From the NCBI GenBank assembly GCA_035502015.1, contig DATJVA010000001.1, positions 676 through 64,675 of the forward strand: a stretch of DNA of 64,000 bases. Reading direction: 5' to 3'. The translations under genes and the position numbers were made by a program. The notes beneath the pieces were generated by a model. The model was given only the letters and a program-made list of their open reading frames with translations, was not told where the DNA came from and did no database searches. The number at the start of each line of letters is the position of its first letter. The stretch's first letter is position 1. Shown piece by piece: positions 21,414 through 47,832 of this stretch. The DNA comes from Thermoplasmata archaeon. Its GTDB lineage: Archaea; Thermoplasmatota; Thermoplasmata; Lutacidiplasmatales; UBA184.

Positions 21414-21431
21414 GGGCTTTTTAACGGTTGG
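21414..21431 (-). promoter_or_regulatory. Promoter of the LSm-L37e operon: CCAACCG-TTAAAAAG (BRE/TATA-like) on the coding strand
   Basis: Forward gctttttaacggttgg. Shares the 11-mer TTAACGGTTGG with the S15 promoter at 28241-28251. Confidence 0.35.
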
Positions 21432-22140
21432 GGCCGACGACCGACCGGCGTGCCTTCCCCGTCCACCCCTCCAGAGTGGACACCACCGCGAGCGCCTCGG
21501 CCCGGGACGGACGCCGGGCCGCCCCCGCGCGGGAGAGAACCGCCTCGAGGTGACGCGCGAGGGAGACGGGTGCGGACCGCGCTCGGAGCTGGAAGAACCG
21601 GCCCGGGAGAACCTGGGGCAACACTTCCTCGAAGAGCATTCGCTCGAACCGGCCGACCGCCTCGTGCCGAGCCCGAAGTCGCCTCGGGTGGCGCTCCGCG
21701 TCCCGACGGGCGCGGGCGGCCCGCTCGCGGGCGGTCGTGTGGAGGTAGACCGTGAGGTCGGGGACCCCGAGGGCACCTCTCCGGACGAGCGACCGGGCAC
21801 TCCGGACGAGGGTCCGGCCCACGGACGCCGGGGAGCCACCGATCGTGACGAGGCCGAGCGTGTACGTGACGGGACCGAGGAAACCGGTGTCGGCCAGCAC
21901 GGTCTCCCCCTGCTCGCACAGCCGGCGCGCTTCCCGGTAGCGATGAGTCTCCTCTGCGAGCAGAGTCTCCTCGAGCCGCAAGAGCTCGAGAGAGGAGTCG
22001 AACTCGATCGACGGGGACGGGTCGAGGCGGTCGACGGCCTCGGAGAGGGGTCGCCAGCCGTATCGTCGCGCCGCGACGCGGACGAGCGTCGACTTTCCGG
22101 AGGCAGAGCCCCCCTCGAGCGCCACCAGCCGGCCCCGCAT
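21421..22140 (-). CDS. Thymidylate-kinase-fold P-loop kinase (divergent paralog)
   Basis: Start at MRGRLVALEGGSASGKST (Walker A). Also has Tmk-like LADTGFLGPVTYTLG and PDLTVYLHTTARERAARA. The upstream Arg-rich ORF extension was rejected; alternative start at 22200. Confidence 0.5.
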   Translation of the reverse strand: MRGRLVALEGGSASGKSTLVRVAARRYGWRPLSEAVDRLDPSPSIEFDSSLELLRLEETLLAEETHRYREARRLCEQGETVLADTGFLGPVTYTLGLVTIGGSPASVGRTLVRSARSLVRRGALGVPDLTVYLHTTARERAARARRDAERHPRRLRARHEAVGRFERMLFEEVLPQVLPGRFFQLRARSAPVSLARHLEAVLSRAGAARRPSRAEALAVVSTLEGWTGKARRSVVGPNR

Positions 22141-22240: not shown

Positions 22241-23533
22241 GTGCCCGAGCCTTCCGAGCCTTCCGCAGCGCGACGGCGCATTCCGGCCCGGGTCCTCGAG
22301 GTGGACTCCCTGGCCGACGTCGCCCGAGAGGTGGCGCGGACCGAAAGCGACCCCGAGGGGGTGGCGATCATGACCCGGAAGGGTCGGATCTATCCGGTCC
22401 GGCTGGACGGGATCTCGCTCAAGGCGGCCCCGCTCCTCAAACAGGAGACGCTCTCGGTCGGGGCCGACTCGGCGCACGCCCGCGGGATCGCCGACCACTC
22501 GGTCGCGACGACCTCGGTCGTGATCCTGGCGACGTGGGGACAGTACCAGCGGCTCCTCCCGAAGCTCCGGCGCCAACCGTTCCGCCTCGCGGACGCGGCC
22601 GCCGAGATCGACCACGCCCTGAGGGCCTACGTCGCGCGCACCCCGCGGACGGTCCGCGGCCCGCACCGCTCGTTCCTCGTCGGGGACCGGCCCCAGGTCA
22701 TGGGGGTCCTCAACGTCACTCCCGACTCGTTCTCGGATGGGGGCCTCCACATGGACCCGAAGGAGGCGGTCGCGCACGCCGAGCGCCTGGTCGACGAAGG
22801 GGCGGCGATGATCGACATCGGCGGGGAGTCGACCCGGCCGGGAGCGGCCCCTGTCTCTCCGGACGCGGAATGGGCTCGGGTCGGGCCGGTCCTCGCGGGA
22901 CTTTCCGGTCGCCTACCGGTCCCGATCTCGATCGACACGCGGCACGCGGAGGTGGCCGCCAAGGCGGTCGACGCGGGGGCCGATGTCGTGAACGACATCG
23001 AGGGCCTCCGGTCCGAGGCGATGCGTCGGGTCGTCGCGAAGAGCGGGGCGGCCGTGATCGCGATGCACATGCGCGGAGACCCGACGACGATGCAGTCGAA
23101 CCTGGTCTACGGCGACCTGCGCGGGGAGGTGTTCTCGTGGCTCGCGGCGTCGACGGAGCGGGCGATCGCGGAAGGGGTACCTGCCGACCGGATCCTCATC
23201 GACCCGGGCCTCGGGTTCGGAAAGTCCGCCGAACAGTCGCTCGAGCTCCTCCTGCACGTCGGGGAGTTCCGGAGCCTCGGATACCCGGTCGTGGTCGGAG
23301 CGTCGCGGAAATCGTTCCTCGGCTGGGTCCTCGGCATCGAGGCGCCGGGCCCTCGCCTTGAGGCGGGGATCGCCGCGGCCGTCGTCGCCGCGGAGCGGGG
23401 GGCGGCGATCGTCCGCACGCACGATGTGGGGCCGACCGTGCGAGCGCTCGAGGTCGTGCGGGCCGCGCGGGAGCTCGCGAACAGCGCACCGGCCGCGTCC
23501 GAGCTCGATGCGTCGGACCCGGACGCGCCCTAG
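22241..23533 (+). CDS. folP: Dihydropteroate synthase with an about 150-aa N-terminal extension domain
   Basis: VMGVLNVTPDSFSDGG...IDIGGESTRPGA...ISIDT...NDI is the DHPS/pterin-binding signature. The N-terminal extension was not recognised. Confidence 0.85.
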   Translation: MPEPSEPSAARRRIPARVLEVDSLADVAREVARTESDPEGVAIMTRKGRIYPVRLDGISLKAAPLLKQETLSVGADSAHARGIADHSVATTSVVILATWGQYQRLLPKLRRQPFRLADAAAEIDHALRAYVARTPRTVRGPHRSFLVGDRPQVMGVLNVTPDSFSDGGLHMDPKEAVAHAERLVDEGAAMIDIGGESTRPGAAPVSPDAEWARVGPVLAGLSGRLPVPISIDTRHAEVAAKAVDAGADVVNDIEGLRSEAMRRVVAKSGAAVIAMHMRGDPTTMQSNLVYGDLRGEVFSWLAASTERAIAEGVPADRILIDPGLGFGKSAEQSLELLLHVGEFRSLGYPVVVGASRKSFLGWVLGIEAPGPRLEAGIAAAVVAAERGAAIVRTHDVGPTVRALEVVRAARELANSAPAASELDASDPDAP

Positions 23534-23756: not shown

Positions 23757-26364
23757 CGCCCTCGTCGTCCGGAGCGGGAGTGTCGGAGCCGTCCTCCTCG
23801 GGGGTCTCCTCCTCGTCGGAGGTCTCCTCGTCCGCCGGAGGCTCAGGAGACTCCGGGCCCGGCTCGGGGGAAGGCTTCGCGCCGGACCCGGCCGGTGCGC
23901 TCGTTTCGATCGGGGGCTCGAGGATGACGGCGTCGCGCACGGTATCGCCCTCGCCGAGGCGGATGACGCGTACGCCGAGAGTGTTCCGGGCCTGGGACCG
24001 GATCCCCTTCACGGCCATGCGGATCGTGATCCCGTGCTCGGTCGTGACGAGCGCCTCGCTCGCGTCCGTCGTCGGGAGGACGGCGACGACCGACCCGTTG
24101 CGACCGCCGGTCTTGATCGTCCGGACCCCCTTCGCGCCGCGGCGCGTGCGGCGGTAGTCCGCGGTCGGGCTCCTCTTACCGTAGCCGGTCGTCGTGAGCG
24201 AGAGCAGCATCGGGAACCGTTCGTCGACGGGCGCCATCGCCACCACCTTGTCGCCCTTCTCCTCGGAGAGCCGGACCCCGATCACCCCGTACGTCGCGCG
24301 GCCCATCGGCCGCACCTCGGTGAGCGGGAACCGCACGAGCTGGCCGGCGAGCGTCGCGAGGATGATCTCGGTCGCCTCGTTCTCCACGAGGACGACGTCG
24401 ACGAGCTCGTCCCCCTCCTCGAGGAGGACCGCCTGGATGCCGTTCGTCCGGATGTTCTGGTACTCGTCGAGGTTCGTCCGCTTCACGATCCCCTTGCGCG
24501 TCGCGAAGACGAGCGAGCCCGCCGCGGCGATGTCCTTGAGCGGAAGCAGGGTCTGCACGCGCTCGCCGTCCTTGAGTTTCGGGAGGAGGTTGATCACCGC
24601 CTTCCCTTTCGAGTGGCGGCTCCCCTCGGGGAGCTCGTACGCCTTCAGCCGGTAGACGCGGCCGAGGTTGGTGAGGAACAGCACGTCGTCGTGCGTTCGC
24701 GTGACGAAGGTACGGATGACGAAATCCTCCTCCTTCGTCTCCATCTGGATCAGCCCTCGCCCTCCCCGGCGCTGGCGCCGGTACTGGTCGAGCGGGAGCC
24801 GCTTGACGTAGCCGTCCCGGGTGACCAGGACCACGACGTCCATGTCGGGGATCAGGTCCTCGAGGGTGCGCTCGGTGAACGCCGGGACGATGCGGGTCCG
24901 GCGCTCGTCCCCGAACCGCTTCTTGAGGTCGGTGAGCTCGTCCGCGATCAGCTGGTCGAGCAGCTTCGGGGAGGCGAGCACCGCCTTGAGCTGTTTCGCG
25001 AGGGCCTCCTTCTCCGCCTTCTCCTTCTCGACCGACTCGCGCTCGAGCGCGGTCAGACGCGCGAGCCGCATGTCGAGGATCGCCTTCGCCTGCTCGCTCG
25101 AGAGGAGGAACTTTCCCATCAGGTTCGTCTCGGCGACCTGGACGTCCTTCGAGCGGCGGATGATCCGGATCACCTCGTCGATGTGGTCGATCGCGGTGAG
25201 GAACCCCTCGAGAAGGTGGAGGCGCTCCTCGGTCTTCCGAAGGTCGAACTTCGTCCGGCGGGTGAGGATGGTCCGCCGGTGGTCGATGTGCAGCGCGAGC
25301 AGCTCGAGCAGCGAAAGGACCCTCGGGTGCCCTTCGACGAGACAGAGGTTGATCACGCCGAAGCTCGTCTCGAGCGGTGTGTGCTCGTACAGCCGGTTCA
25401 GGACGATCTCGGACGGAGCGTCGCGACGCAGCTCGAGCACGACGCTCGTCCCGTGGCGGTCCGATTCGTCCCTCAGGTCGGTGATCCCGTCGACCCGCTT
25501 TCCCTTGACAAGGTCGGCGATCAGCTGGAGAAGGTCGGCCTTGTTGACCTCGTACGGGATCTCGGTGAGGACGATCTCGTCCTTCCCCGCACGCTCGCGG
25601 ATCTCCGCGGTCCCGCGCAGGTGGATCATGCCGCGGCCGGTCTCGTACGCCTCTCGGATCCCTTCCGTCGAGAGGTAGCCGCCCGTCGGGAAGTCCGGTC
25701 CCGGAACGACCTTCATCACGTCGTCGAGGGTCGCATCGGGGTGGGCGAGGAGCAGAAGGAGCGCGTCGACGACCTCCCCGAGGTTGTGGGGGGGCATGTT
25801 GGTCGCCATGCCGACCGCGATGCCGGCCGAGCCGTTGACGAGCAGATTGGGGACCTTCGAGGGCAACAGGAGCGGTTCCTTCAGGGTCCCGTCGAAGTTG
25901 TCGTTCCACTCCACCGTCTCCTTCTCGATATCGAGAAGGAGCTCCTCGGCGATCGCCGACAGCCGCGCCTCGGTGTACCGCATCGCGGCGGGGGAGTCGC
26001 CGTCGATCGAACCGAAGTTCCCCTGACCGTCGATGAGCGGGTAGCGCAGGCTGAACGGCTGCGCCATCCGAACGAGCGCATCGTACACGGCGAGGTCGCC
26101 GTGCGGGTGGTACTTCCCGAGCACCTCGCCGACCGTGCGCGCGCTCTTGCGGTACGCCCGGTCGTGGGTCGCCCCGGACTCCCACATCGACCAGAGGATG
26201 CGTCGGTGGACCGGCTTCAGGCCGTCACCGGCGAGCGGCAGAGCCCGCCCGACGATGACGCTCATCGCGTAATCGATGTACGAGCGGTGCATCTCCTGCT
26301 CGAGCGCGCGGTCGTGGACCCGGTCGATCGGCGCTTCCGGGACCTCGGTCGGCGGCGCGCTCAT
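23710..26364 (-). CDS. gyrA: DNA gyrase subunit A
   Basis: Start at [16 protein letters not shown]. Has [34 protein letters not shown], six beta-pinwheel C-terminal repeats and an acidic tail. Its ATG overlaps the upstream TGA (ATGA). The 110-aa Arg-rich N-terminal ORF extension was rejected. Confidence 0.95.
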
Positions 26365-37624: not shown

Positions 37625-38620
37625 ATGCCCGGATTCCCTCGCCTTCAGGAGCGCTACGACATCATCGTCGTCGGCGGGGGCCACGCCGGCCTCCAAGCGG
37701 CGGTGAAGGCCGCCCTCCTCCAGCATACGACCGCCCTTCTCGACCGGGGCCCGAAGTACTCGCGTTCGTACTATGCCCCGCATATGATGAACGTCCCGGG
37801 GTTCCCGGACGGTGTCTCGGGCCACCACCTGCTCGACCAGCAGATCGCCGCGGTCCGGAAGTTCGAGGACAAGGTCGGCTACTTCACTCCGGCCGCGGTG
37901 ACCTCGGTCGAGAGGGGGCCGGACGACTTCGTCGTGACGTTCGAATGGCTGAAGCGGACGCACGTGACGCGGGGCCGGGCCGTGGTTCTCGCGATGGGCG
38001 TCGTCGACCGGATCCCGGTCGTCGGCGGCAAGATCGACACGATATTCCCCTGGGCGAACCAGGCGATCGTCGACTTCTGCCTCGTCTGCGATGGTTGGGA
38101 CCTCGTCGATCGGTCGGTCGCGGTGCTGGGCCATGACGCGTTCGCGGCGCGTACCGCGCTCGACATCCTCTCGTTCCGGCCGAAGTCGGTCGAACTGCTG
38201 ACCCACGGCCGCCCGCTGCTCGACGGAGTGCCCGAGCCCGACCGGTCCACCCTCGCGGCCGCTCTCATCGAGCACGGGATCCCGCACCTCACCTCCGAGA
38301 TGGTCGGCTTCGACGGCATCCGGGAAAAGCAGTTCGTCGTCCGGTTCGCGGACGGGACGCACCGGACCTACGACCGAGGGTTCAGCGGCCTTGGCTGGTA
38401 CGACATGCACCAGACGATCCCGCGCTCGCTCGGTTGCCGGTTCGACGCGGACGGGTATGTCGTCACGGACGACGACTGCCGCGCCCTGTCGGAAGCGACC
38501 GGTGAGCCGATCCCCGGCCTCTACTGCGTCGGGGACCAACGCAACGGTTGGAACCAGATCCCCGAGGCGTGGGCGACCGCCGAACGGGCGGTCGTTCACG
38601 CGTGGGCGTCGTACCTCTAG
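37625..38620 (+). CDS. trxB: Thioredoxin-reductase-like FAD/NAD(P)-dependent disulfide oxidoreductase
   Basis: YDIIVVGGGHAGLQAA (FAD GxGxxG) and FCLVCDGWD (CxxC redox site, cf. TrxR CATCDG). Confidence 0.7.
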   Translation: MPGFPRLQERYDIIVVGGGHAGLQAAVKAALLQHTTALLDRGPKYSRSYYAPHMMNVPGFPDGVSGHHLLDQQIAAVRKFEDKVGYFTPAAVTSVERGPDDFVVTFEWLKRTHVTRGRAVVLAMGVVDRIPVVGGKIDTIFPWANQAIVDFCLVCDGWDLVDRSVAVLGHDAFAARTALDILSFRPKSVELLTHGRPLLDGVPEPDRSTLAAALIEHGIPHLTSEMVGFDGIREKQFVVRFADGTHRTYDRGFSGLGWYDMHQTIPRSLGCRFDADGYVVTDDDCRALSEATGEPIPGLYCVGDQRNGWNQIPEAWATAERAVVHAWASYL

Positions 38621-39792: not shown

Positions 39793-41331
39793 CTAGGCGG
39801 CTCCCCGCGGTCGCTCGAGCGTGACGATCGATTCGCGCAGCTCGAAGCTCCGGCGCTGGCCGCTCCGGCGGCGACGAGCGACCTCGACCGAGGCGATTCT
39901 GAAGCCGCGCTCGGCCCCGAGGCGGGCAAGCAGGAGGTCTCCGGGGACGTACGCCCCGGCGAGCAGGGAATCCCCGACGACCACGACGAACCGTCCTCCC
40001 GGGACGAGGGCGCGGTAGACTCCGTCCAGTACAGGACGCAGGTCGGAGAAGTAGCGGTGGACGACCGCGTGCATATCGTCGCGGCGATACGACCCCTTCC
40101 GGGCAAGGTTCTCCCGGATGCGCGAAAGCACCTCCGAAAGCCAGGGGTCGGAGACCCGGCTCGTGTCGAGGTAGGCGGCCGCCTCGCGTCGGGGAAGGTT
40201 GTCGCACGCCACCTGCGCCCGACGGATCGCCGCGAGGTCGGCGTACGAATGCGCGTACCCCAGCCACGCGAGGTCGACCTTGTAGTTCATCACGTAGTCC
40301 ATCCCGTTCACGTACGGCGGGCTCGTGACCGCGAGCGCGACCGACCGAGCCCGCCAGCCACCGTGTCTCGCGTCCCGCGTCGTCACCTCCGCCGGGGGGC
40401 CCCAGCGGACCCGGTCCGCCTGCAAAGTGCCGAGGTCAACGACCATCTCGTCGACCGCGGTGCGGAACCGCTCCATCGGCGAGACCGCGGGCTCCTCCCG
40501 CGCCCTTCCGTAGCCGAGGCACGGGGACCGGTGGAGGCGGCTCGACGGGATGAGGATTCGACCGAAGGCGAGTCGCAGCGCCTCCGAGAGCGGGTCGACC
40601 TCTCGAGGGAGCGCATCGCGAAGTCGGGTGAGGTCCCGGAGCGCCGCCGAGGAGAACTGACGACGCGTCTCGCGAAGGAACGGCAGGCTCCCCACGGGGC
40701 GCCGCGCCGCCCGGCGGAGGACCCGCTCGGCCGCGGACGGGAGAGCTCGGGGGTCGAGTTCGAAGTGCGTCTTCACCCGGGCCGCGAGCGCCGCGGGGCC
40801 GAGAAGCTCCGTACCTACGGCGTGAGCGCCGGCGCGCCGTGCCTCGACGAGCGTGGTCCCGCTGCCGGCGAACGGGTCGAGGACGGTGGCGCGGTATGGA
40901 AGGTCGGCCTGGGCGATCACGCCCGCGACGAACTCGGCCGAGTACCCTTGGACGTACGGCCACCATCGGTGAACGGGAAGCGACTCGTTCGAGCGGAACG
41001 TGATCGGCCCGCGGTAGCGACCGAGGGTGACCCCGTTCTCCTTCTCGAACCGTTCCGCGAACTGCTGGGGGTCGACGAAGTCGTGGCGCTCGGCCAGCCG
41101 CTCGTAGTCCCGCAGGACGAACAGCCCTCGGCCCATCCGCAGCACGTCGCCCCGGCTCCGCATTGCGTCGAGGACGGTGGCCACGCGGTCGGCGCGGTCG
41201 TCGAGGCGAGAGGCGATCTGACGGACCGTGGCCCCGATCGCCCCGGTCTCCCCGAGGACCTCCCGTACCGCCCCCGCGAGGCTCTCGTGGTCCGAACCGG
41301 CCATCGCCGCCGGAGGACGCCACGAGGTCAT
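39793..41331 (-). CDS. Amino-DNA methyltransferase (N4-C/N6-A; motif I FAGSGTT then motif IV TSPPY) with N-terminal winged-helix domain; no cognate endonuclease seen
   Basis: VLDPFAGSGTTLVEARRAG (AdoMet motif I, about aa 150) and LAVTSPPYVNGMDY (motif IV, about aa 340). The order I...IV with about 190 aa between suggests an alpha-like architecture. Confidence 0.6.
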   Translation of the reverse strand: MTSWRPPAAMAGSDHESLAGAVREVLGETGAIGATVRQIASRLDDRADRVATVLDAMRSRGDVLRMGRGLFVLRDYERLAERHDFVDPQQFAERFEKENGVTLGRYRGPITFRSNESLPVHRWWPYVQGYSAEFVAGVIAQADLPYRATVLDPFAGSGTTLVEARRAGAHAVGTELLGPAALAARVKTHFELDPRALPSAAERVLRRAARRPVGSLPFLRETRRQFSSAALRDLTRLRDALPREVDPLSEALRLAFGRILIPSSRLHRSPCLGYGRAREEPAVSPMERFRTAVDEMVVDLGTLQADRVRWGPPAEVTTRDARHGGWRARSVALAVTSPPYVNGMDYVMNYKVDLAWLGYAHSYADLAAIRRAQVACDNLPRREAAAYLDTSRVSDPWLSEVLSRIRENLARKGSYRRDDMHAVVHRYFSDLRPVLDGVYRALVPGGRFVVVVGDSLLAGAYVPGDLLLARLGAERGFRIASVEVARRRRSGQRRSFELRESIVTLERPRGAA

Positions 41332-41348
41332 AACGGCACGACCGCGGT

Positions 41349-42239
41349 TCAGCGACGAGAGACGGAAGGACGGGTCGCCGGGGTCTCCGGAAGGCGAACG
41401 GCCGTGTCGAGGGATCCGAGGATCTGTTTTCGTCTTCGCCGTCGGTCGTCCCGGAGTTGCTCGGCCCAGTCGGTCTTCCGGACGTCGTCGTCCAGCCCGA
41501 CGAGGATCATGTCAAGGTCGTGGAGGTCCCCGAGGTCCTTCTGGAGCCGGGCGAGAGAGCTCGGGAACGCGCGCTCGTGCTCCGGGTCGAGCACGACCGC
41601 GAGGTCGGAGAATTGGCGGGCCCGACGGATTCGTATCCGCAGTCGGTGCAGACGTTCCATGGTCGGACGGCGAACCGCTTTGCGATGGGCCGCCGCCAGC
41701 TTCTGGTGAGTGCGGTCGTGGGCGGCTCGCACGGCCCGACGACTGTCCCGGAACGAACCCGAGCGGGGAAGGCTCCGGAGCCGCTCGGCGACGTCGTCGA
41801 GGAGCCGTGCCTGGCGCTCAGAGCGGAGGAAGGCGCGCAGGAGCTCCCGTCCCGTCCGGGCATCGTCCTGTACCCTCTTTCGGTACTGTTCGACCCGCTC
41901 GGTGTCCCGACGGGACGCCGACGCCCGGTCGAACCGCTGGAGGAGGGCGAGCGCGATGTCCCGGTCGCGGATCCGTCCAACGAGACGCGAAAGGCGCTTC
42001 ACGCGGACGTCCAGCGGGTGGAGGAGCTCGCGCTCCGCGCCGGGGAGCAGCGCTTCCCAAAGGGCGAGGCCGGTCCGCAACTTGCGCATCTGACGATGGA
42101 GGCGATGAAGGCTCTCCGGGGACGGGTGAGGGGCGGCGACCACGAAGTCGACCGCCTTCGTGACATCCTCGAGGATCCGCGCGATTTCGCGTGCGACGAG
42201 CTCGGGACGGATGGCGCCGTTGCGCTCGCTCGGGGCCAT
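41349..42239 (-). CDS. CHAD-domain protein (conserved histidine alpha-helical domain; polyphosphate-associated)
   Basis: All-helical, Arg/His-rich with repeated H.LR..R.LR patterns (ESLHRLHRQMRKLRTGLALWE..., ...RLHRLRIRIRRARQ). Divergent from ppx. Confidence 0.65.
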   Translation of the reverse strand: MAPSERNGAIRPELVAREIARILEDVTKAVDFVVAAPHPSPESLHRLHRQMRKLRTGLALWEALLPGAERELLHPLDVRVKRLSRLVGRIRDRDIALALLQRFDRASASRRDTERVEQYRKRVQDDARTGRELLRAFLRSERQARLLDDVAERLRSLPRSGSFRDSRRAVRAAHDRTHQKLAAAHRKAVRRPTMERLHRLRIRIRRARQFSDLAVVLDPEHERAFPSSLARLQKDLGDLHDLDMILVGLDDDVRKTDWAEQLRDDRRRRRKQILGSLDTAVRLPETPATRPSVSRR

Positions 42240-42328
42240 CCGGAACCCTCGGCCGGGCAGACCAAGTCCCCCACCTAAACCATTCGGAAGGGGCGGTCCC
42301 TAAGCCGGATTTCACCCGAGCCCTCATA

Positions 42329-42342
42329 GAGACGTACGTCTC
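42329..42342. promoter_or_regulatory. Perfect 14-bp palindrome GAGACGTACGTCTC in the CHAD/ppx divergent promoter region
   Basis: Read directly. Lies just 3' of a TATA-like TCATAGAG positioned about 27 nt upstream of the 42353 ATG. Confidence 0.35.
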
Positions 42343-42352
42343 TCGTCTCCTC

Positions 42353-43909
42353 ATGCACCGGGCCCGTCTCGCTGACCTCGAGCGAGACGGTCGTCCGGCC
42401 CGCTCGGAGTCGACCATCGGCGTGATGGACATCGGCTCGAACACGGCCCGGTGCGTTGTGTTCGACGCCTCGACGGCGGGTACGGTGCGACCGGTCTACG
42501 AAACGAAGGACGCGCCTCGCCTCGGCTCCGGGACCGGGGCCGATGGGAGCCTCTCTCCCGAGGCGATGGTGCGCGGCGTCACGACCGTCCGCCGTTTCGC
42601 GCGCACGCTGCGGGCGTTCAAGGTGCCGAAGACGCTCGCCGTGGCGACGAGCGCTGTCCGGGACGCTCCGAACGGCCCCGACTTCGTCCGGGACGTCGCA
42701 CGGGCGACCGGGGTGACGCTCCGAACGATCTCGGGAACCGAGGAAGCGCGGTACGCCTACCTCGGGCTCGCGAGCGCCTGGGAGCTCTCAAACGACCTCG
42801 TCTGCGACCTGGGCGGTGGGTCGCTCCAGATCGCGGAGGTGCGTGACGGAGCGCTCCGCAACTCCGTGAGCCTTCCCCTCGGAGCCTTGCGGCTCTCCCA
42901 GCGGTTCTTCGACCACGACCCTCCGAAGCGCCGGGAGTACGACGCGCTGCGCGAGCACGTGCAGGGGACGCTCGCCTCCGTACTCGAGGCGTTCGGTGGG
43001 ACCCGCTACCGTCTCTTCGGGGTCGGGGGCACCGTCCGGTCGCTCGCCCGCGCGGCGATCGAGTTCCGCGAGTACCCCGTGCGCCGGGTCCATGGCTATC
43101 CGCTCTACGAGAACGACATCGAGGCGCTCGAGGAGCTCCTCGGAGAGATGCCGAGCACGCGGCGTCGCGCGATCCCCGGCATCGGGGGCGACCGAGCGGA
43201 CGTCGTGCTCGCGGGGATCGTCGTCTTCTCCGAGCTTCTGCGCGCGGTGAAGGTGGACCGGATCATCGTCTCGGGCACGGGGATCCGGGAAGGGATCGCG
43301 CTCGAGTCGGTCGGGGCAAAGCTCCCGGCGCCGGCCGAGACGCTCGCCGCGCGGTCGGCCGCGGCCGCCTCCGAGTCGTTCGCTTTCGACCTCGAGCACG
43401 GGCGCGAGGTCGCCGATACGGCGACGACGCTGTTCCGTCTCCTCGCCGACCGTTTCGAGGCGGGGCGGAGCGAGGAGCTGGCGCTCCGCGTCGCCGCGTG
43501 GATGCACGACGCGGGGGTGGCAGTCGACCTGTGGAACCACGCCCGACACTCCTCCTACCTGATCCAGAACTACCCGATCTGGGGGCTCGACCAGCGGGAA
43601 GTGCTTCTCGCCGCGATGGCGGCGTACCTTCACGAAGGGACCGCGGCTCCCTCCGAGTGGAAGAAGGGGTTCCTTCCGATCATCCATCCTCCCGACCTGG
43701 AGAACGCGGTCCGCCTCGGCGCGATCCTCGGGGTCGCGGAGATCCTTGCCCCCGTCCACCCCCGGTTCTCCCTCGCGGGCGACGGTCGCACGCTGGCAGT
43801 GAGCTTTTCTACGACGAGCAGTACGACCCTTCCCCCGCGGTGGGCCGAGAAGGTTCGCAAGCCGATGGAACGGGTGTTCGAGCTCGAGGTGCGTCATCGA
43901 GATGCCTGA
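42353..43909 (+). CDS. ppx: Ppx/GppA-family exopolyphosphatase/guanosine pentaphosphatase with C-terminal HD-like domain
   Basis: MDIGSNTARCVVF (actin-fold phosphate-1 motif), ...DLGGGS..., and C-terminal WMHDAGVAVDLWNHARHS. Start 42353 (leaderless) or 42422/42425. Confidence 0.85.
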   Translation: MHRARLADLERDGRPARSESTIGVMDIGSNTARCVVFDASTAGTVRPVYETKDAPRLGSGTGADGSLSPEAMVRGVTTVRRFARTLRAFKVPKTLAVATSAVRDAPNGPDFVRDVARATGVTLRTISGTEEARYAYLGLASAWELSNDLVCDLGGGSLQIAEVRDGALRNSVSLPLGALRLSQRFFDHDPPKRREYDALREHVQGTLASVLEAFGGTRYRLFGVGGTVRSLARAAIEFREYPVRRVHGYPLYENDIEALEELLGEMPSTRRRAIPGIGGDRADVVLAGIVVFSELLRAVKVDRIIVSGTGIREGIALESVGAKLPAPAETLAARSAAAASESFAFDLEHGREVADTATTLFRLLADRFEAGRSEELALRVAAWMHDAGVAVDLWNHARHSSYLIQNYPIWGLDQREVLLAAMAAYLHEGTAAPSEWKKGFLPIIHPPDLENAVRLGAILGVAEILAPVHPRFSLAGDGRTLAVSFSTTSSTTLPPRWAEKVRKPMERVFELEVRHRDA

Positions 43910-44600
43910 GATCCCCTCACCGAACCACGGCTTTCCCGGTCGGTTGCTGGTCTTTGAGGGCCTCGACGGGAGCGGCAAGTCGACCCAGGCGGCGCTGCTC
44001 GGGAAGTGGCTCCAGTCGAACGGCTACCGGGTCTTCTTCACCGAGTGGAACTCCTCCGAGCTCGTCTCGAGCACGATCCGGCGCGGAAAGAAGAAGGGCC
44101 TTCTCACGCCCACGACCTTCTCGCTCCTGCACGCGGTCGACTTCGCGGACCGGTTCGAGCGGAAGATCCTGCCGCCCCTGCGGGCGGGGTATCTTGTCGT
44201 CTGCGACCGGTACGCCTACACGGCGTTCGTCCGGGACGCGGCCCGTGGCTGCGACCCGGCGTGGGTCCGCATGATCTACTCGTTCGCTCCGCGACCGGAC
44301 CGCGTGTTCTACTTCCGGGTCCCGGTGGCGGTGACGCTGAAGCGCAAGCTCGCCTCGCGCCTCAAGATGAACTACTACGAGGCCGGGATGGACCTGGGAC
44401 TCTCGGACGACCTCGTCGAGAGCTACCAGCGGTTCCAGGGGCGCCTGAAGCGCGAATACGACCGCCTCTCGACGATCGACGACTTCCGGGTGATCGACGC
44501 GACGCGCTCGGTCGAGGCGATCCAGGCGAACCTGCGCGCCGACCTGAAACCCCTGCTCGCAAAGTTCCCGACGGGAACGCGGTTGATGCATGATGGATAG
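43902..44600 (+). CDS. tmk: Thymidylate kinase family protein (paralog 1)
   Basis: LVFEGLDGSGKST (P-loop), ...LTPTTFSLLHAVDFADRFERKILPPLRAGYLVVCDRYAYTAFV (DRY motif), PDRVFYFRVP (lid). Overlaps the ppx stop by 8 nt. Confidence 0.75.
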   Translation: MPEIPSPNHGFPGRLLVFEGLDGSGKSTQAALLGKWLQSNGYRVFFTEWNSSELVSSTIRRGKKKGLLTPTTFSLLHAVDFADRFERKILPPLRAGYLVVCDRYAYTAFVRDAARGCDPAWVRMIYSFAPRPDRVFYFRVPVAVTLKRKLASRLKMNYYEAGMDLGLSDDLVESYQRFQGRLKREYDRLSTIDDFRVIDATRSVEAIQANLRADLKPLLAKFPTGTRLMHDG

Positions 44601-45306
44601 GACGTACGGTACCCGGCTTCCCGGGATGACGGAGGACGAGCTCGTCGGGAAGCTCGTCGTCGTCGAAGGGGCCGACGGTTCGGGACGGACGACCGAGGTC
44701 GCCCTCCTCCGGCAGTGGCTCGAGGTCGAGGGCCACGCGGTCGTCGATACCGGGTTGCGTCGCTCCGACCTCGTGAGCGGCGAGATCGACCGCGCGAAGC
44801 AGGGCCACACGCTCGCGTCGACCACCATGGCGCTCCTCTACGCCGCCGACTTCGCCGACCAGCTCGAGAACAAGATCGTCCCGGCGCTCGCGGCCGGAAG
44901 CACCGTCCTCGCCGACCGGTACATCTACACCCTGATGGCGCGCGCGATCGCCCGCGGCGCCTCCCGGGAGTACGCCCGCCAGCTGTACGGCTTCGCCCTC
45001 CGTCCCGACCTGGTCGTCTTCCTCGATGCCCGTCCCGAGATCCTGCTCCACCGGTCGATCGGGAAGTACGGGTCCCTCGACTACTGGGAGTCCGGGATGG
45101 ACCTCTGCCTCTCCCGCGACCTCTTCGAGAGCTTCTTCCTCTACCAGGACCTCCTCTCGAAGGAGTTCGAGTGGATGGCCGCGAAGTACGGATTCCACAC
45201 CGTCGACGCGAACGGCAGTCCGGAGCAGGTCCACGCGGACGTCCAGCGACTGGTGGCCCCCCTGTACGACCCACCGCGTCGCGCGGCCCGACGACGGCGA
45301 CGCTGA
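44590..45306 (+). CDS. Thymidylate kinase family protein (paralog 2)
   Basis: VVVEGADGSGRTT, ...ALLYAADFADQLENKIVPALAAGSTVLADRYIYT, PDLVVFLDARP. Overlaps paralog 1 by 11 nt. Confidence 0.7.
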   Translation: MMDRTYGTRLPGMTEDELVGKLVVVEGADGSGRTTEVALLRQWLEVEGHAVVDTGLRRSDLVSGEIDRAKQGHTLASTTMALLYAADFADQLENKIVPALAAGSTVLADRYIYTLMARAIARGASREYARQLYGFALRPDLVVFLDARPEILLHRSIGKYGSLDYWESGMDLCLSRDLFESFFLYQDLLSKEFEWMAAKYGFHTVDANGSPEQVHADVQRLVAPLYDPPRRAARRRRR

Positions 45307-45356
45307 CGGTACGGTCTACCTGGTCGGCCGCTCGTGCAACGGCGGTGGGAACGACC

Positions 45357-45893
45357 CTAGTCGCGTTTCGCGGCGAGCTGTTTTCGAGTCAGTAGCCAGA
45401 CGAGGCGTCCCGCACCCGGGCGAACCGAGTTCGAGAACTCGAGACAGACCGCTCCACCTTTCGTGAGGTGGACCACGGAGAGGCCCTCTCCGGTGAGCGC
45501 CTCGCCCACGAACTCCGCGAGCGTCGGCTCGTGCCCGACCAGCACGACGGTCTCCTTCGGATGCGCTGAGCGACGGATCCGGTCGAAGATCGGGGTCGCC
45601 AGGTTGCCCGGCGCGAGCTCCTCCCACGTCTCGGGAGTAGGAGCCTTCGACAGCTCCCGACGGATCAGTTCCGCCGTGCGGAGGGCGCGGTCGGCCGAAC
45701 TGGACGCGAGCCGGTCGGCGGAGCGGACGACGTGGGCGAGCCCCTTCGCCGCCCGGCGTGTCTCGCCCTCGCCCTTGCGAGTGAGCGGCCGAAGGTCGTC
45801 ATCCGGCCAACGAGCGGGGTCCCGGACCTCGGCGGGGCCGTGACGAACGGCGATGACACGAATCGCTTTGGAGCGAACCTGCTTGCGCGGCAC
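45357..45893 (-). CDS. Histidine-phosphatase superfamily protein (SixA/phosphohistidine phosphatase-like)
   Basis: VIAVRHGPAE (RHG catalytic motif) ... VVLVGHEPTL (second His), about 178 aa. Confidence 0.7.
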   Translation of the reverse strand: MPRKQVRSKAIRVIAVRHGPAEVRDPARWPDDDLRPLTRKGEGETRRAAKGLAHVVRSADRLASSSADRALRTAELIRRELSKAPTPETWEELAPGNLATPIFDRIRRSAHPKETVVLVGHEPTLAEFVGEALTGEGLSVVHLTKGGAVCLEFSNSVRPGAGRLVWLLTRKQLAAKRD

Positions 45894-45946
45894 GGGTCCG
45901 TAGGGGGACCCAAGGCAGGCGTCGTGGTAGAAAATCTCTCCGCTGG

Positions 45947-46882
45947 CTATGGAGGCTGGGCCGGGATCGCGGCAATACGTCGTCCGTGCGCTTTTGCGTC
46001 GGACCCGGCCGCCGGGGCACAGCGGTCGAGCGCAACTTGCGCGATGTCCTGGGAGTAGGCGACCGTCCGGCCGATCGATTCGAGGATCCGGGTCACCGCG
46101 GCGGCGGTCGCCGGGGGCATCGTTCCACCCCCGACCGCCGGGAGCAGACGCTCGGAAAGGGCCCGACCGGAAGCCTGGAGCGCCTCGCCAATGTCGAGCA
46201 GGTCGTTCGCCGCCGCGTCGTTCGCGACCTCGAGAACCCCTTCGAGATGCTCCATCGCTTGATGGTGGAACTGGTGGAGGGTCGTCACGGGTCCGCCCCC
46301 GCTCGGAAGGTCAACAAGCCGCCGTCCCACCTCGCCGATCACGACCGCGTGGTCGGCAATCCGCTCAAGGCTCCGTGCGGTCGTCCACGGGCCCAGCCAC
46401 TCAGACCCCCGTCCGCCGGCGCCAAGGCGGATCACCGCGACCCGTTCTACGTACCACGCCTCTCGGTCGATCTCGTCGTCGCGTCGTTCCCAGTACCCGT
46501 CCTCCAGGAACGGAAGATGGGACCAGCTCTCCACGGCCTCTCGGTGGAAGTCGACAACGAGCCGCCCCATGCGGACGATCCGCTGCTCGAGGGGGATCGG
46601 GCTTTCGAACGCGAGGTCGCGCAGCTGGACGGAGCCCGGCTCGTCCGAAATGATCTCGGGCTGGCGGGTCCTCCGGCAGAAGGTGCGGACCACGTCCCGC
46701 GTGCCGGCACTGATCGTCGGACGCTCCCGCACCGAGAACTGGCGGGCTCCGGCAAGGTACGCTCCCAGGAGGCGGCGGAAGAGGTGCTCGGATGGCTCTC
46801 CTCGGCTCACGTAGAGGACCACCTCTTCGATTGCGGCCGTTTGGTCGATCGGATCGCGCTTTGCGCCGGACGCCGCGCGCAT
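45947..46882 (-). CDS. PhoU-domain phosphate-uptake-regulator-like protein (start uncertain: 46882, 46984 or 47011)
   Basis: Two PhoU-type helical repeats (IVRMGRLVVDFHREAVESW and SLERIADHAVVIGEVGRRL, cf. ERIGDHA.NIAE). Confidence 0.6.
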   Translation of the reverse strand: MRAASGAKRDPIDQTAAIEEVVLYVSRGEPSEHLFRRLLGAYLAGARQFSVRERPTISAGTRDVVRTFCRRTRQPEIISDEPGSVQLRDLAFESPIPLEQRIVRMGRLVVDFHREAVESWSHLPFLEDGYWERRDDEIDREAWYVERVAVIRLGAGGRGSEWLGPWTTARSLERIADHAVVIGEVGRRLVDLPSGGGPVTTLHQFHHQAMEHLEGVLEVANDAAANDLLDIGEALQASGRALSERLLPAVGGGTMPPATAAAVTRILESIGRTVAYSQDIAQVALDRCAPAAGSDAKAHGRRIAAIPAQPP

Positions 46883-47009
46883 CCCGCTGGAACGCTCGGG
46901 TCGGTGCTCACTTGGCCAACGGGGGGGACCCGGCGGCGACGTGGAAGAGCCTCCGCTCGCCCCCTCGGGAATCTTGGTCTTCATCGGTACAGGAATGGCC
47001 GCCGTGCGC

Positions 47010-47066
47010 ATATATAGAGTTTGAATTTAGACTATAGTTCATACTATAGCTATTGTTTACCTATCG
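47010..47066 (-). promoter_or_regulatory. AT-rich island (about 25% GC) with TATATAGAG and two ACTATAG direct repeats (CTATAG palindromic cores) immediately upstream of the PhoU-like ORF
   Basis: tatatagagtttgaatttagactatagttcatactatagctattgtttacc. It is the only strongly AT-rich stretch in the window. Confidence 0.45.
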
Positions 47067-47268
47067 GGACGCCCGATGCGCGGCTCTGCCCATTCGTAGT
47101 GGCCGAGGGCGCTTTCTGAGCCGGTCGGGCGGAGTTCGGCCACGGGTTCGAGGTCCGCGCGCCGGACGTCGCACACTGGCGTGATGGTTCCCCCATCGGC
47201 GAGAAAGTGCCGGACGGCACGTCAGGGCAGAGTCCATAAGCGGGGTCCGCATCCCTCGCGGTAAGGTC

Positions 47269-47832
47269 ATGTCGACCTCCCGCCGCTTTGCGCGGTACCG
47301 ACCCACCGAAGGCGAGGTCGGGGGACGCCGCGTCTGGGCCGTCCCGCGCGCCGGCATGTGCCTGTCGGTGTTCGTGCTCGTCGGGGACCCGAAGAACCCG
47401 AACCTGGTCGTGCTCGGTCGTCCGGCGCCCTCCGCGCCATGGGACGAGATCGGGAACCTTGAGCCCGCGTCCCTCGAGGCGCTTCAGGAGCACTGGGTGC
47501 TCCCGGCGTGCCATCTTGTCGAGTTCGAGGGCCCGCGGGCGGCCGCCGAGCGGGTCGTACGGGAGCAGCTCGGTCTCGAGCACCTCGAGCTCCGGGGGCC
47601 CGAGGTGTTCTCGGACGCGTACCCGTCCGCGACTTCTCCAGAGAGCGGCTCTCACTGGGACATCGATTTCCTGTTCCATGCGGACTGGCCCCACGGCCGC
47701 GAGCTTCACTCACCGGCGTTCCGGGAGCTCCGTCTGATCGACACCCGGACGATCGGCGCTCCCAATCTCGGGCGGGGGCACGGGGACGTCCTGATCCTCG
47801 CAGGATATCCTCTCGGCGCCCGGATGACCTGA
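47269..47832 (+). CDS. NUDIX hydrolase
   Basis: ...EFEGPRAAAERVVREQLGLE fits the Nudix box G.5E.7REvxEExGu with one E->Q. Confidence 0.55.
   Translation: MSTSRRFARYRPTEGEVGGRRVWAVPRAGMCLSVFVLVGDPKNPNLVVLGRPAPSAPWDEIGNLEPASLEALQEHWVLPACHLVEFEGPRAAAERVVREQLGLEHLELRGPEVFSDAYPSATSPESGSHWDIDFLFHADWPHGRELHSPAFRELRLIDTRTIGAPNLGRGHGDVLILAGYPLGARMT

Follow-up and report, generated by a model that had tools for sequence, protein, structure and literature searches.

The 64,000-nucleotide stretch analysed here (the window, G+C about 70%) comes from a Thermoplasmata archaeon of the UBA184 lineage (GenBank assembly GCA_035502015.1, contig DATJVA010000001.1, positions 676 to 64,675), and between its positions 41,349 and 47,832 it carries a group of genes that is very probably a locus of polyphosphate (polyP) metabolism arranged around a polyphosphate kinase of the PPK3 type, a reading which in our judgement explains the whole island best. 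Two overlapping genes of the thymidylate kinase family, Tmk1 (43902..44600, plus strand) and Tmk2 (44590..45306, plus strand), are interpreted as the catalytic subunit (cPPK3) and as the regulatory, probably inactive subunit (rPPK3) of this enzyme. A first-pass annotation of this DNA, made from its letters, had suggested that polyP might drive nucleotide phosphorylation by these two kinases, through a fold shared with PPK2. This idea was right in substance and has already been published as PPK3 (PMC12995831): the two genes are orthologues of both PPK3 subunits, but they are not PPK2-like, and the acceptor is likely to be ADP and not thymidylate (dTMP).

Hofmann et al. (J Biol Chem 2026, PMC12995831) described PPK3 in February 2026 and identified it as the polyP kinase that had been missing from Crenarchaeota; its hosts are, according to the abstract, mainly Sulfolobaceae and Nitrososphaeraceae plus a few bacteria. 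In S. acidocaldarius the catalytic subunit Saci_2019 produces polyP from ATP and ATP from polyP and ADP, in a reversible reaction that favours ATP formation, with ADP and, weakly, GDP as acceptors; the regulatory subunit Saci_2020, which is inactive itself, raises the activity of Saci_2019 about 10-fold when the two form an alpha2beta2 complex, and neither protein has dTMP kinase activity (PMC12995831). Genes encoding PPX, SixA, CHAD and NUDIX proteins are the typical neighbours (PMC12995831), and a neighbourhood of the same type is present in the window, where ppx lies directly upstream and CHAD, SixA and a weak NUDIX-like open reading frame (ORF) are adjacent. The S. acidocaldarius operon saci_2017-2021 has the composition sixA-ppx-cPPK3-rPPK3-CHAD (PMC12995831); the same five gene families are found here, ppx, cPPK3 and rPPK3 being adjacent and in the same order, and the signature residues of cPPK3 are the same. 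The two loci differ in the orientation of the flanking genes, because in the window CHAD is divergent and SixA convergent whereas in S. acidocaldarius both are co-directional with ppx, and they differ also in the conserved neighbourhood of the window, which includes a PhoU-like gene.

Tmk1 and Tmk2 share 41% identity and both match the thymidylate kinase model of Pfam (PF02223, E=2.6e-26 and E=8.7e-21, respectively), in agreement with their first-pass description as overlapping paralogues of that family which form an operon with ppx. Tmk1 matches STK_15430 of Sulfurisphaera tokodaii, a crystallised cPPK3 homologue, with E=4.6e-57 (PDB 2plr/5h70) and 49% identity over about 200 residues, whereas canonical thymidylate kinases reach only about 1e-14. 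STK_15430 (PDB 2plr, 4nzy, 4rzx, 5h70) was deposited as 'probable thymidylate kinase'; it has in common with Tmk1 the P-loop, TEWNSS, KKK-LLTP-TFSL-HA-DF-DR, DRY-YTA and an insertion near E-A-G-D, and Tmk1, which is known from its sequence, is longer by about 12 N-terminal and about 15 C-terminal residues.

A scan of one genome per species (loci L006-L033) revealed the order ppx, Tmk1-like gene, Tmk2-like gene in 22 Thermoplasmata species, two bacterial metagenome-assembled genomes (MAGs) and four Sulfolobaceae-type genomes, and the tandem pair of cPPK3 and rPPK3 is present in all of these loci. The identity of cPPK3 to Tmk1 is 67-93% in Thermoplasmata, 57% in the Sumerlaeota MAG, 53% in the Myxococcales MAG and 45-47% in the Sulfolobaceae-type genomes, the Thermoplasmata PPK3 proteins being nearer to the bacterial (53-57%) than to the Sulfolobaceae ones. 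Moreover, more than 120 Thermoplasmata protein clusters at 81% identity or above were found, all of them named 'dTMP kinase'. In a neighbour-joining tree of 52 sequences (60 bootstraps), where STK_15430 and Sulfolobaceae orthologues stood in for Saci_2019 and the canonical group was taken from the fetched loci, the cPPK3 clade including STK_15430 received 100% support, the rPPK3 clade, in which Tmk2 groups with the Sulfolobaceae genes located downstream of cPPK3, received 83%, and the separation of PPK3 from the single-copy canonical dTMP kinases again 100%. PPK3 is a clade of its own inside the dTMP kinase superfamily. Tandem Tmk-like pairs also occur in L034 (Gracilibacteria) and L035/L036 (Altarchaeum); they fall inside the PPK3 clade, have the Walker-A Lys in both copies and have no ppx detected nearby, and they may show the PPK3 duplication in another or an earlier state.

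The residues of Tmk1 tell the same story as PMC12995831 for cPPK3: the ATP machinery is kept, the dTMP pocket is lost and conserved basic residues are present. The ATP-site residues K26, D102 and R103 are maintained, and the Walker-A residue is a Lys in 29 of 29 cPPK3 sequences. From Thermoplasmata to Sulfolobaceae the positions E48-W49-N50-S51-S52, K63-K65, H77, F81, R84, D102-R103, R111-D112 and R115 are invariant, and the cPPK3 proteins of all three lineages have the P-loop GSGKS, K63-K64-K65 and D102-R103-Y104. Where canonical dTMP kinases carry T-(K/R)-E-P, cPPK3 has T-E-W-N-S-S, that is, (K/x)-E-P has become E-W-N; His77 replaces the thymine-stacking Phe, Phe81 replaces the Arg of FxxxR, and R111-D112 stands where canonical enzymes have Y-Q (a replacement of AYQ by AFV was scored as well). 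A 13-residue insertion, YYEAGMDLGLSDD, is also present. The basic residues K63-65, R84, R87, R111 and R115 do not vary among cPPK3 proteins, whereas rPPK3 has lost most of them. All the dTMP-binding features, namely (R/K)EP, the stacking Phe, the Arg of FxxxR and S-x-AYQ, are replaced in both Tmk1 and Tmk2, while the E-P and the Arg are retained in 49 of 50 canonical dTMP kinase sequences. In the profile comparison between Tmk and PPK2 that the first-pass annotation had proposed, both proteins scored over the dTMP kinase cut-off and neither matched PPK2; the full set of dTMP-binding residues that would have marked them as ordinary thymidylate kinases was not found.

In Tmk2 the Walker-A motif reads GSGRTT, and this change of Lys to Arg, which is that of the Sulfolobaceae orthologues examined, is present in 28 of 28 rPPK3 sequences from every lineage. 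Most of the basic residues of cPPK3 are also missing from rPPK3 (K64->Q, K65->G, R84->Q, R87->N). The inactivity of rPPK3 has been attributed to the loss of the DRX arginine (PMC12995831), a trait of Saci_2020 that the window protein lacks: the arginine is kept in 22 of 22 Thermoplasmata and 2 of 2 bacterial rPPK3 proteins, including Tmk2 (DRY), and it is a Gly in all four Sulfolobaceae ones (ADRY versus ADGY). As the arginine is kept outside Sulfolobaceae, its loss is not the general cause of rPPK3 inactivity, and the orthology of the subunit stands because the Walker-A change is common to all 28 proteins.

The first gene of the operon encodes a Ppx/GppA-family exopolyphosphatase of 518 amino acids (42353..43909, plus strand; PF02541, E=1.3e-58), which also matches the model of Ppx domain III (PF21447, E=6.9e-14) and scores 277.9 bits on TIGR03706 'exopolyphosphatase', under the cut-off of 307. 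Its reading frame is open from 42191, and gene callers and the conserved N-terminal peptide place the real start at ATG 42353. Tmk1 begins inside the end of ppx, with 8 nt in common, and the overlap between Tmk1 and Tmk2 is 11 nt; therefore the three genes form one translationally coupled operon. The divergent gene encodes a CHAD-domain protein (41349..42239, minus strand; PF05235, E=1.7e-21), separated from ppx by 113 bp, so that the divergent pairing described in the first-pass annotation is correct. CHAD proteins are associated with polyP granules, and the gene is kept in synteny at most Thermoplasmata loci.

The promoter of the operon was located by comparing 17 orthologous ppx promoters. 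A and T account for a fraction of 0.94 at -27..-25 and of 0.71-0.76 at -24..-23, against a background of about 0.25, and in the window this position is occupied by the TATA-like box CATAGAG (42325..42331, plus strand; -28..-22 from ATG 42353). The earlier proposal of a TATA-like box between the two genes is supported because the spacing between the A/T box and the start codon is constant; its conservation implies that it is a putative archaeal TATA box and that the ppx-ppk3 mRNA would be leaderless or nearly so. On the opposite strand an A/T-rich box, GGTTTAGG (42274..42281, minus strand), precedes the ATG of CHAD by about 40 nt, and L006 and other loci have similar boxes in the corresponding position, which makes it a candidate TATA box of CHAD.

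Between the ppx TATA box and the start codon there is a perfect palindrome, AGAGACGTACGTCTCT (42328..42343, assigned to neither strand), which the first-pass annotation had reported with 14 bp and which is exact and in fact 16 bp long. Its proposed role as an operator did not survive comparison: none of the ppx promoters of 16 orthologous loci contains it, not even the one of L006, the nearest relative (cPPK3 identity 93%). The genomic search for further copies that had been suggested gave nothing in the window, where AGAGACGTACGTCTCT is unique and has no second copy at 2 or fewer mismatches. Perfect palindromes of this kind are frequent in this DNA: compared with first-order Markov simulations there are 7 with arms of at least 8 (3.65+/-2.1 expected) and 26 with arms of at least 7 (12.7+/-3.9 expected), the latter being about twice the expectation. 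The operator was therefore rejected as a candidate on the grounds of its absence from orthologous promoters, the lack of a second copy and the commonness of its size, and the palindrome is most likely a species-specific chance feature. The longest perfect palindrome of the window is another one, CTCCTTCTCGATATCGAGAAGGAG, of 24 bp (25918-25941).

The unit that converges on the operon is composed of a PhoU-like gene (45947..46984, minus strand) followed downstream by a SixA-like gene (45357..45893, minus strand), both recognised in the first-pass annotation and both confirmed. The SixA-like histidine phosphatase matches PF00300 (His_Phos_1, E=2.1e-8), has the RHG motif (VRHGPA) and scores 70.4 bits on TIGR00249 sixA, for which the cut-off is 74.5; the gene is syntenic in Thermoplasmata, and in Sulfolobaceae loci sixA precedes ppx. 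The PhoU-like protein has 345 amino acids and a PF01895 match with E=9e-7, and its start, MKTK at 46984, is set by the 345-amino-acid protein P0121, which is 100% identical over the shared residues. It consists of a low-complexity N-terminal tail of about 50 residues with no conservation, a beta-alpha-beta-alpha-beta-beta domain and a C-terminal PhoU module. In a confident structural model (pLDDT 88.2) this last part is a complete six-helix module, equal to two PhoU repeats, and it matches full-length PhoU structures (1xwm, 1t8b, 2i0m, 4q25) with template modelling (TM) scores, normalised on the target, of 0.6-0.73. The N-terminal domain modelled alone (pLDDT 91.4) gave fold-level hits only, to YhbY, Alba/Sso10b and IF3-C (E of at least 0.011, TM about 0.6). 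On the full-length equivalog model TIGR02135 the protein reaches 16.6 bits, the cut-off being 130.

The C-terminal two-repeat module, with its E-R-I-A-D-H-type motifs, is shared with bacterial PhoU (1xwm, 2i0m, 4q25) and with the archaeal AbrB(SpoVT)-PhoU proteins known as 'phosphate uptake regulator', and the middle alpha/beta domain is common to the window protein and to the AbrB-PhoU homologues in L017-L021, L025 and L145. Unlike the AbrB-PhoU proteins, the window protein has its non-conserved low-complexity tail in the position of AbrB, and no match to the AbrB domain (PF04014) was obtained for it even at E<=10. An AbrB/SpoVT domain precedes the same middle domain in the PhoU homologues near ppx in L020, L021 and L025, which are deeper-branching and 39-46% identical, and in paralogues in L017-L019; the domain scores 30.7 bits in L017 and 17.8 bits in L020. 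The comparison of these sequences indicates that the window protein has lost the AbrB domain of its deeper-branching homologues, and direct binding to DNA by the AbrB route is therefore unlikely. A further difference from pst-linked PhoU lies in the surroundings, as the window gene adjoins sixA and ppk3 and no pst gene was found within the annotated 10 kb on either side.

Upstream of the PhoU-like gene there is an A/T-rich promoter element, CTATAG-N7-TATAGTCTAAATTCAAACTCTATATAT (47010..47049, minus strand), a candidate element of a phosphate (Pho) regulon, whose TATA box terminates 26 nt upstream of the ATG at 46984. Over 11 loci the consensus CTATrG-N9-TATAGTCTAAATTGAAAtTCTATATAT is near-invariant and the following 25 nt are variable. 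The window holds one copy, with none expected, and each of ten fetched loci with its 12-nt core also holds one; the element is found in L006, L009, L010, L013-L015, L017, L018, L020, L024, L025 and L087-L166. It is absent from the promoters of ppx and CHAD.

When metagenomes were scanned with the 27-nt pattern TATAGTCTAAAT-N7-CTATATAT, 109 stretches were obtained, 80 of which were analysed. In 58 of them the element stands before a PhoU-like gene, 7 are too short, 11 are low-GC contigs whose copies are probably chance matches, and 4 are other high-GC contigs. In three of these four (L108, L119, L153) the element lies 90-170 nt upstream of pstS; on TIGR00975 (cut-off 205) the pstS product scores 253.7 bits in L108 and 162 bits in L153, that of L119 matches the broader PBP_like_2 only, and in L108 pstC comes next (TIGR02138, 196.1 bits). 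In the fourth contig, L145, the element precedes a partial ORF with an AbrB-like N-terminus and the middle domain of AbrB-PhoU proteins; the AbrB part was recognised by eye, as the 111-amino-acid fragment had no Pfam match. These occurrences make the element a candidate promoter of a phosphate regulon in the lineage, which may link the PhoU-like/SixA unit to pstSC. A literature search on AbrB-PhoU archaeal Pho promoters found nothing relevant. The phosphate-signalling character that the first-pass annotation had given to the island finds independent support in another cis-element, the 27-nt one common to the PhoU-like gene and pstSC, and not in the palindrome.

The mechanism that we propose for the island combines these observations with what is known of the S. 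acidocaldarius enzyme. The genes ppx, cPPK3 and rPPK3 would be transcribed as one leaderless operon from a single TATA-box promoter. By orthology, the P-loop of cPPK3 would bind ATP/ADP in the fashion of dTMP kinases, a conserved basic cleft in the place of the dTMP pocket would bind polyP, and the enzyme would catalyse polyP(n) + ADP <-> polyP(n-1) + ATP in both directions, ATP formation being presumably favoured at low energy charge. On the same basis rPPK3 would be a catalytically impaired paralogue, whose dimer holds two cPPK3 in an alpha2beta2 complex and raises their activity. Ppx would hydrolyse polyP to inorganic phosphate (Pi), and the divergent CHAD protein would coat polyP granules. 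The convergent unit encodes the PhoU-like protein that lacks AbrB, together with the SixA-like phosphohistidine phosphatase, and, since its promoter element also occurs before pstSC, it is this unit, and not ppx-ppk3, that probably belongs to the phosphate-starvation regulon of the lineage.

Other explanations of the two kinases have to be weighed against this mechanism. They might be ordinary duplicated thymidylate kinases whose adjacency to ppx is incidental; this accounts for their PF02223 matches, for their scores over the TIGR00041 cut-off and for the name 'dTMP kinase' carried by their homologues in databases, and indeed the fold and the architecture of P-loop, DRX and lid are those of the canonical enzyme. 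However, both proteins have other residues in the canonical dTMP-site columns, the insertion YYEAGMDLGLSDD is present, the proteins belong to a clade with 100% support apart from canonical dTMP kinases, the S. acidocaldarius orthologues have no dTMP kinase activity (PMC12995831) and the synteny with ppx is kept across phyla, so that we regard this explanation as extremely improbable. A PPK2-like phosphorylation of dTMP or other nucleoside monophosphates (NMPs) at the expense of polyP, by two independently active kinases of the Tmk fold, has in its favour that PPK3 uses polyP as phosphoryl donor to nucleotides (PMC12995831) and that some residual activity is conceivable for the Thermoplasmata rPPK3, where the DRY arginine is kept. 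PPK2 (PF03976), especially its two-domain class II with an inactive N-terminal domain, resembles PPK3 as a polyP-using P-loop kinase that combines an active and an inactive module. In PPK2, though, the ADP site and the polyP site are interchanged relative to PPK3, and the acceptor of the characterised PPK3 is ADP, with GDP used weakly, and not an NMP (PMC12995831); neither protein of the window matches PF03976 at E<=0.01, and membership of PPK2 was rejected on this ground; the dTMP-site residues are gone and the Walker-A change of rPPK3 is that of the inactive Sulfolobus-type subunit. This possibility is accordingly quite improbable. A third alternative is suggested by the intact DRX arginine, namely that Tmk2 is in Thermoplasmata a second, differently specialised catalytic subunit, as all 22 Thermoplasmata proteins and the two bacterial ones keep D102-R103-Y104, where Sulfolobaceae have Gly for the Arg. 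Tmk2 shares with all 28 rPPK3 proteins the Walker-A Arg, has lost the basic residues of cPPK3 at positions 64, 65, 84 and 87 and shares a clade with the inactive subunit of the Sulfolobus type, and we consider a catalytic role unlikely.

As to control of the operon, the palindrome at 42328-42343 could be an operator through which the PhoU-like protein represses ppx-ppk3 in response to phosphate, and a perfect 16-mer between TATA box and start codon does occupy a position typical of archaeal repressors. This is very improbable in view of its absence from the 16 orthologous promoters, even that of the relative with a 93%-identical cPPK3, of the presence in the window of seven perfect palindromes that are at least as large, of the missing second copy and of a PhoU-like protein that is devoid of the AbrB domain of its deeper-branching homologues.

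Some points weigh against the PPK3 interpretation or against parts of it. Tmk1 (98.3 bits) and Tmk2 (84.0 bits) both exceed the cut-off of the NCBIfam dTMP kinase equivalog TIGR00041 (83.25), which is why public databases name such proteins 'dTMP kinase', and the identity of the dTMP-site columns depends on established thymidylate kinase structures. The function of PPK3 in Thermoplasmata is carried over from the S. acidocaldarius enzyme and is to that extent presumptive. The regulatory-only role of rPPK3 is less certain in this clade, where the DRX arginine is kept. An E. coli Tmk sequence served as outgroup of the tree, and the content of the genome in PPK1, PPK2 and canonical dTMP kinase is seen through the 64-kb window only. 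Finally, the Pho-regulon reading rests on three pstS contigs of unassigned taxonomy.

The first-pass annotation had placed a third kinase of the Tmk fold at 21421-22140, and this was not borne out. The protein (ALEGGSASGKST, minus strand), encoded next to a Pterin_bind (folP-like) gene at 22241-23533, has a P-loop and borderline matches to AAA_28/AAA_33 only. Compared with the cPPK3 profile, 21 P-loop columns align and nothing more; no solved kinase matches it, the PDB at E<=1 yielding six marginal ABC-transporter hits with E of about 0.2. A phmmer search with Tmk1 and Tmk2 detected no further homologue in the window, and the candidate was rejected.

On the far side of the PhoU-like gene, and divergent from it, a weak NUDIX-like ORF of 187 amino acids (47269..47832, plus strand) scores 19.2 bits on PF00293, under the cut-off of 21.1, and its NUDIX box, as read from the sequence, is degenerate (RVVREQ). 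Among the species loci tblastn matched it only in L006, and it lies beside PhoU in many metagenome contigs; its membership of the island is uncertain. Adjoining CHAD there is a gene for an N6/N4 DNA methyltransferase-like protein of 512 amino acids (39793-41331, minus strand; split match to PF01555), which accompanies the polyP island at most of the Thermoplasmata loci, with identities of 65-78%. An Rfam scan of the window gave one tRNA only, and the A/T-rich spacer therefore contains no known RNA. A tRNA-Ala(CGC) at 38106-38195, found by ARAGORN and below the Rfam gathering threshold, has a length of 90 nt that suggests an archaeal intron. A RIO1 kinase gene is also present in the window, whose proteins are almost the same as proteins that public MAGs carry under the name 'Thermoplasmata archaeon', in line with an uncultured host of that class.

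The observations may be joined into one broader hypothesis, which we put forward tentatively and regard as rather doubtful in its entirety: the PPK3 module of soil and peat Thermoplasmata would be wired to a lineage-specific phosphate regulon, TATAGTCTAAAT-N7-CTATATAT would be an archaeal 'Pho box' common to pstSC, the gene of the AbrB-PhoU regulator and the AbrB-less PhoU-like/SixA unit, the AbrB-less PhoU paralogue with its Alba/YhbY-like N-terminal domain would act as a sensor of Pi or polyP that modulates PPK3/PPX or titrates AbrB-PhoU, and rPPK3 would in general owe its inactivity to the Walker-A change of Lys to Arg and not to the loss of the DRX arginine.

PMC12995831 does not name Thermoplasmata in the main text of its two versions, and a literature search for PPK3 together with Thermoplasmata gave nothing relevant. 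What is new here is a further and apparently large group of PPK3 hosts with the complete module, the uncultured high-GC Thermoplasmata of soils and peat, together with the distinction between Walker-A and DRX changes in rPPK3, a PhoU paralogue that has no AbrB domain and a conserved promoter element that pstSC has as well. The capacity of these archaea to synthesise polyP has been invisible because all the homologues are annotated as 'dTMP kinase', and the promoter element common to pstSC offers a concrete and testable approach to the control of phosphate in archaea of an uncultured lineage.

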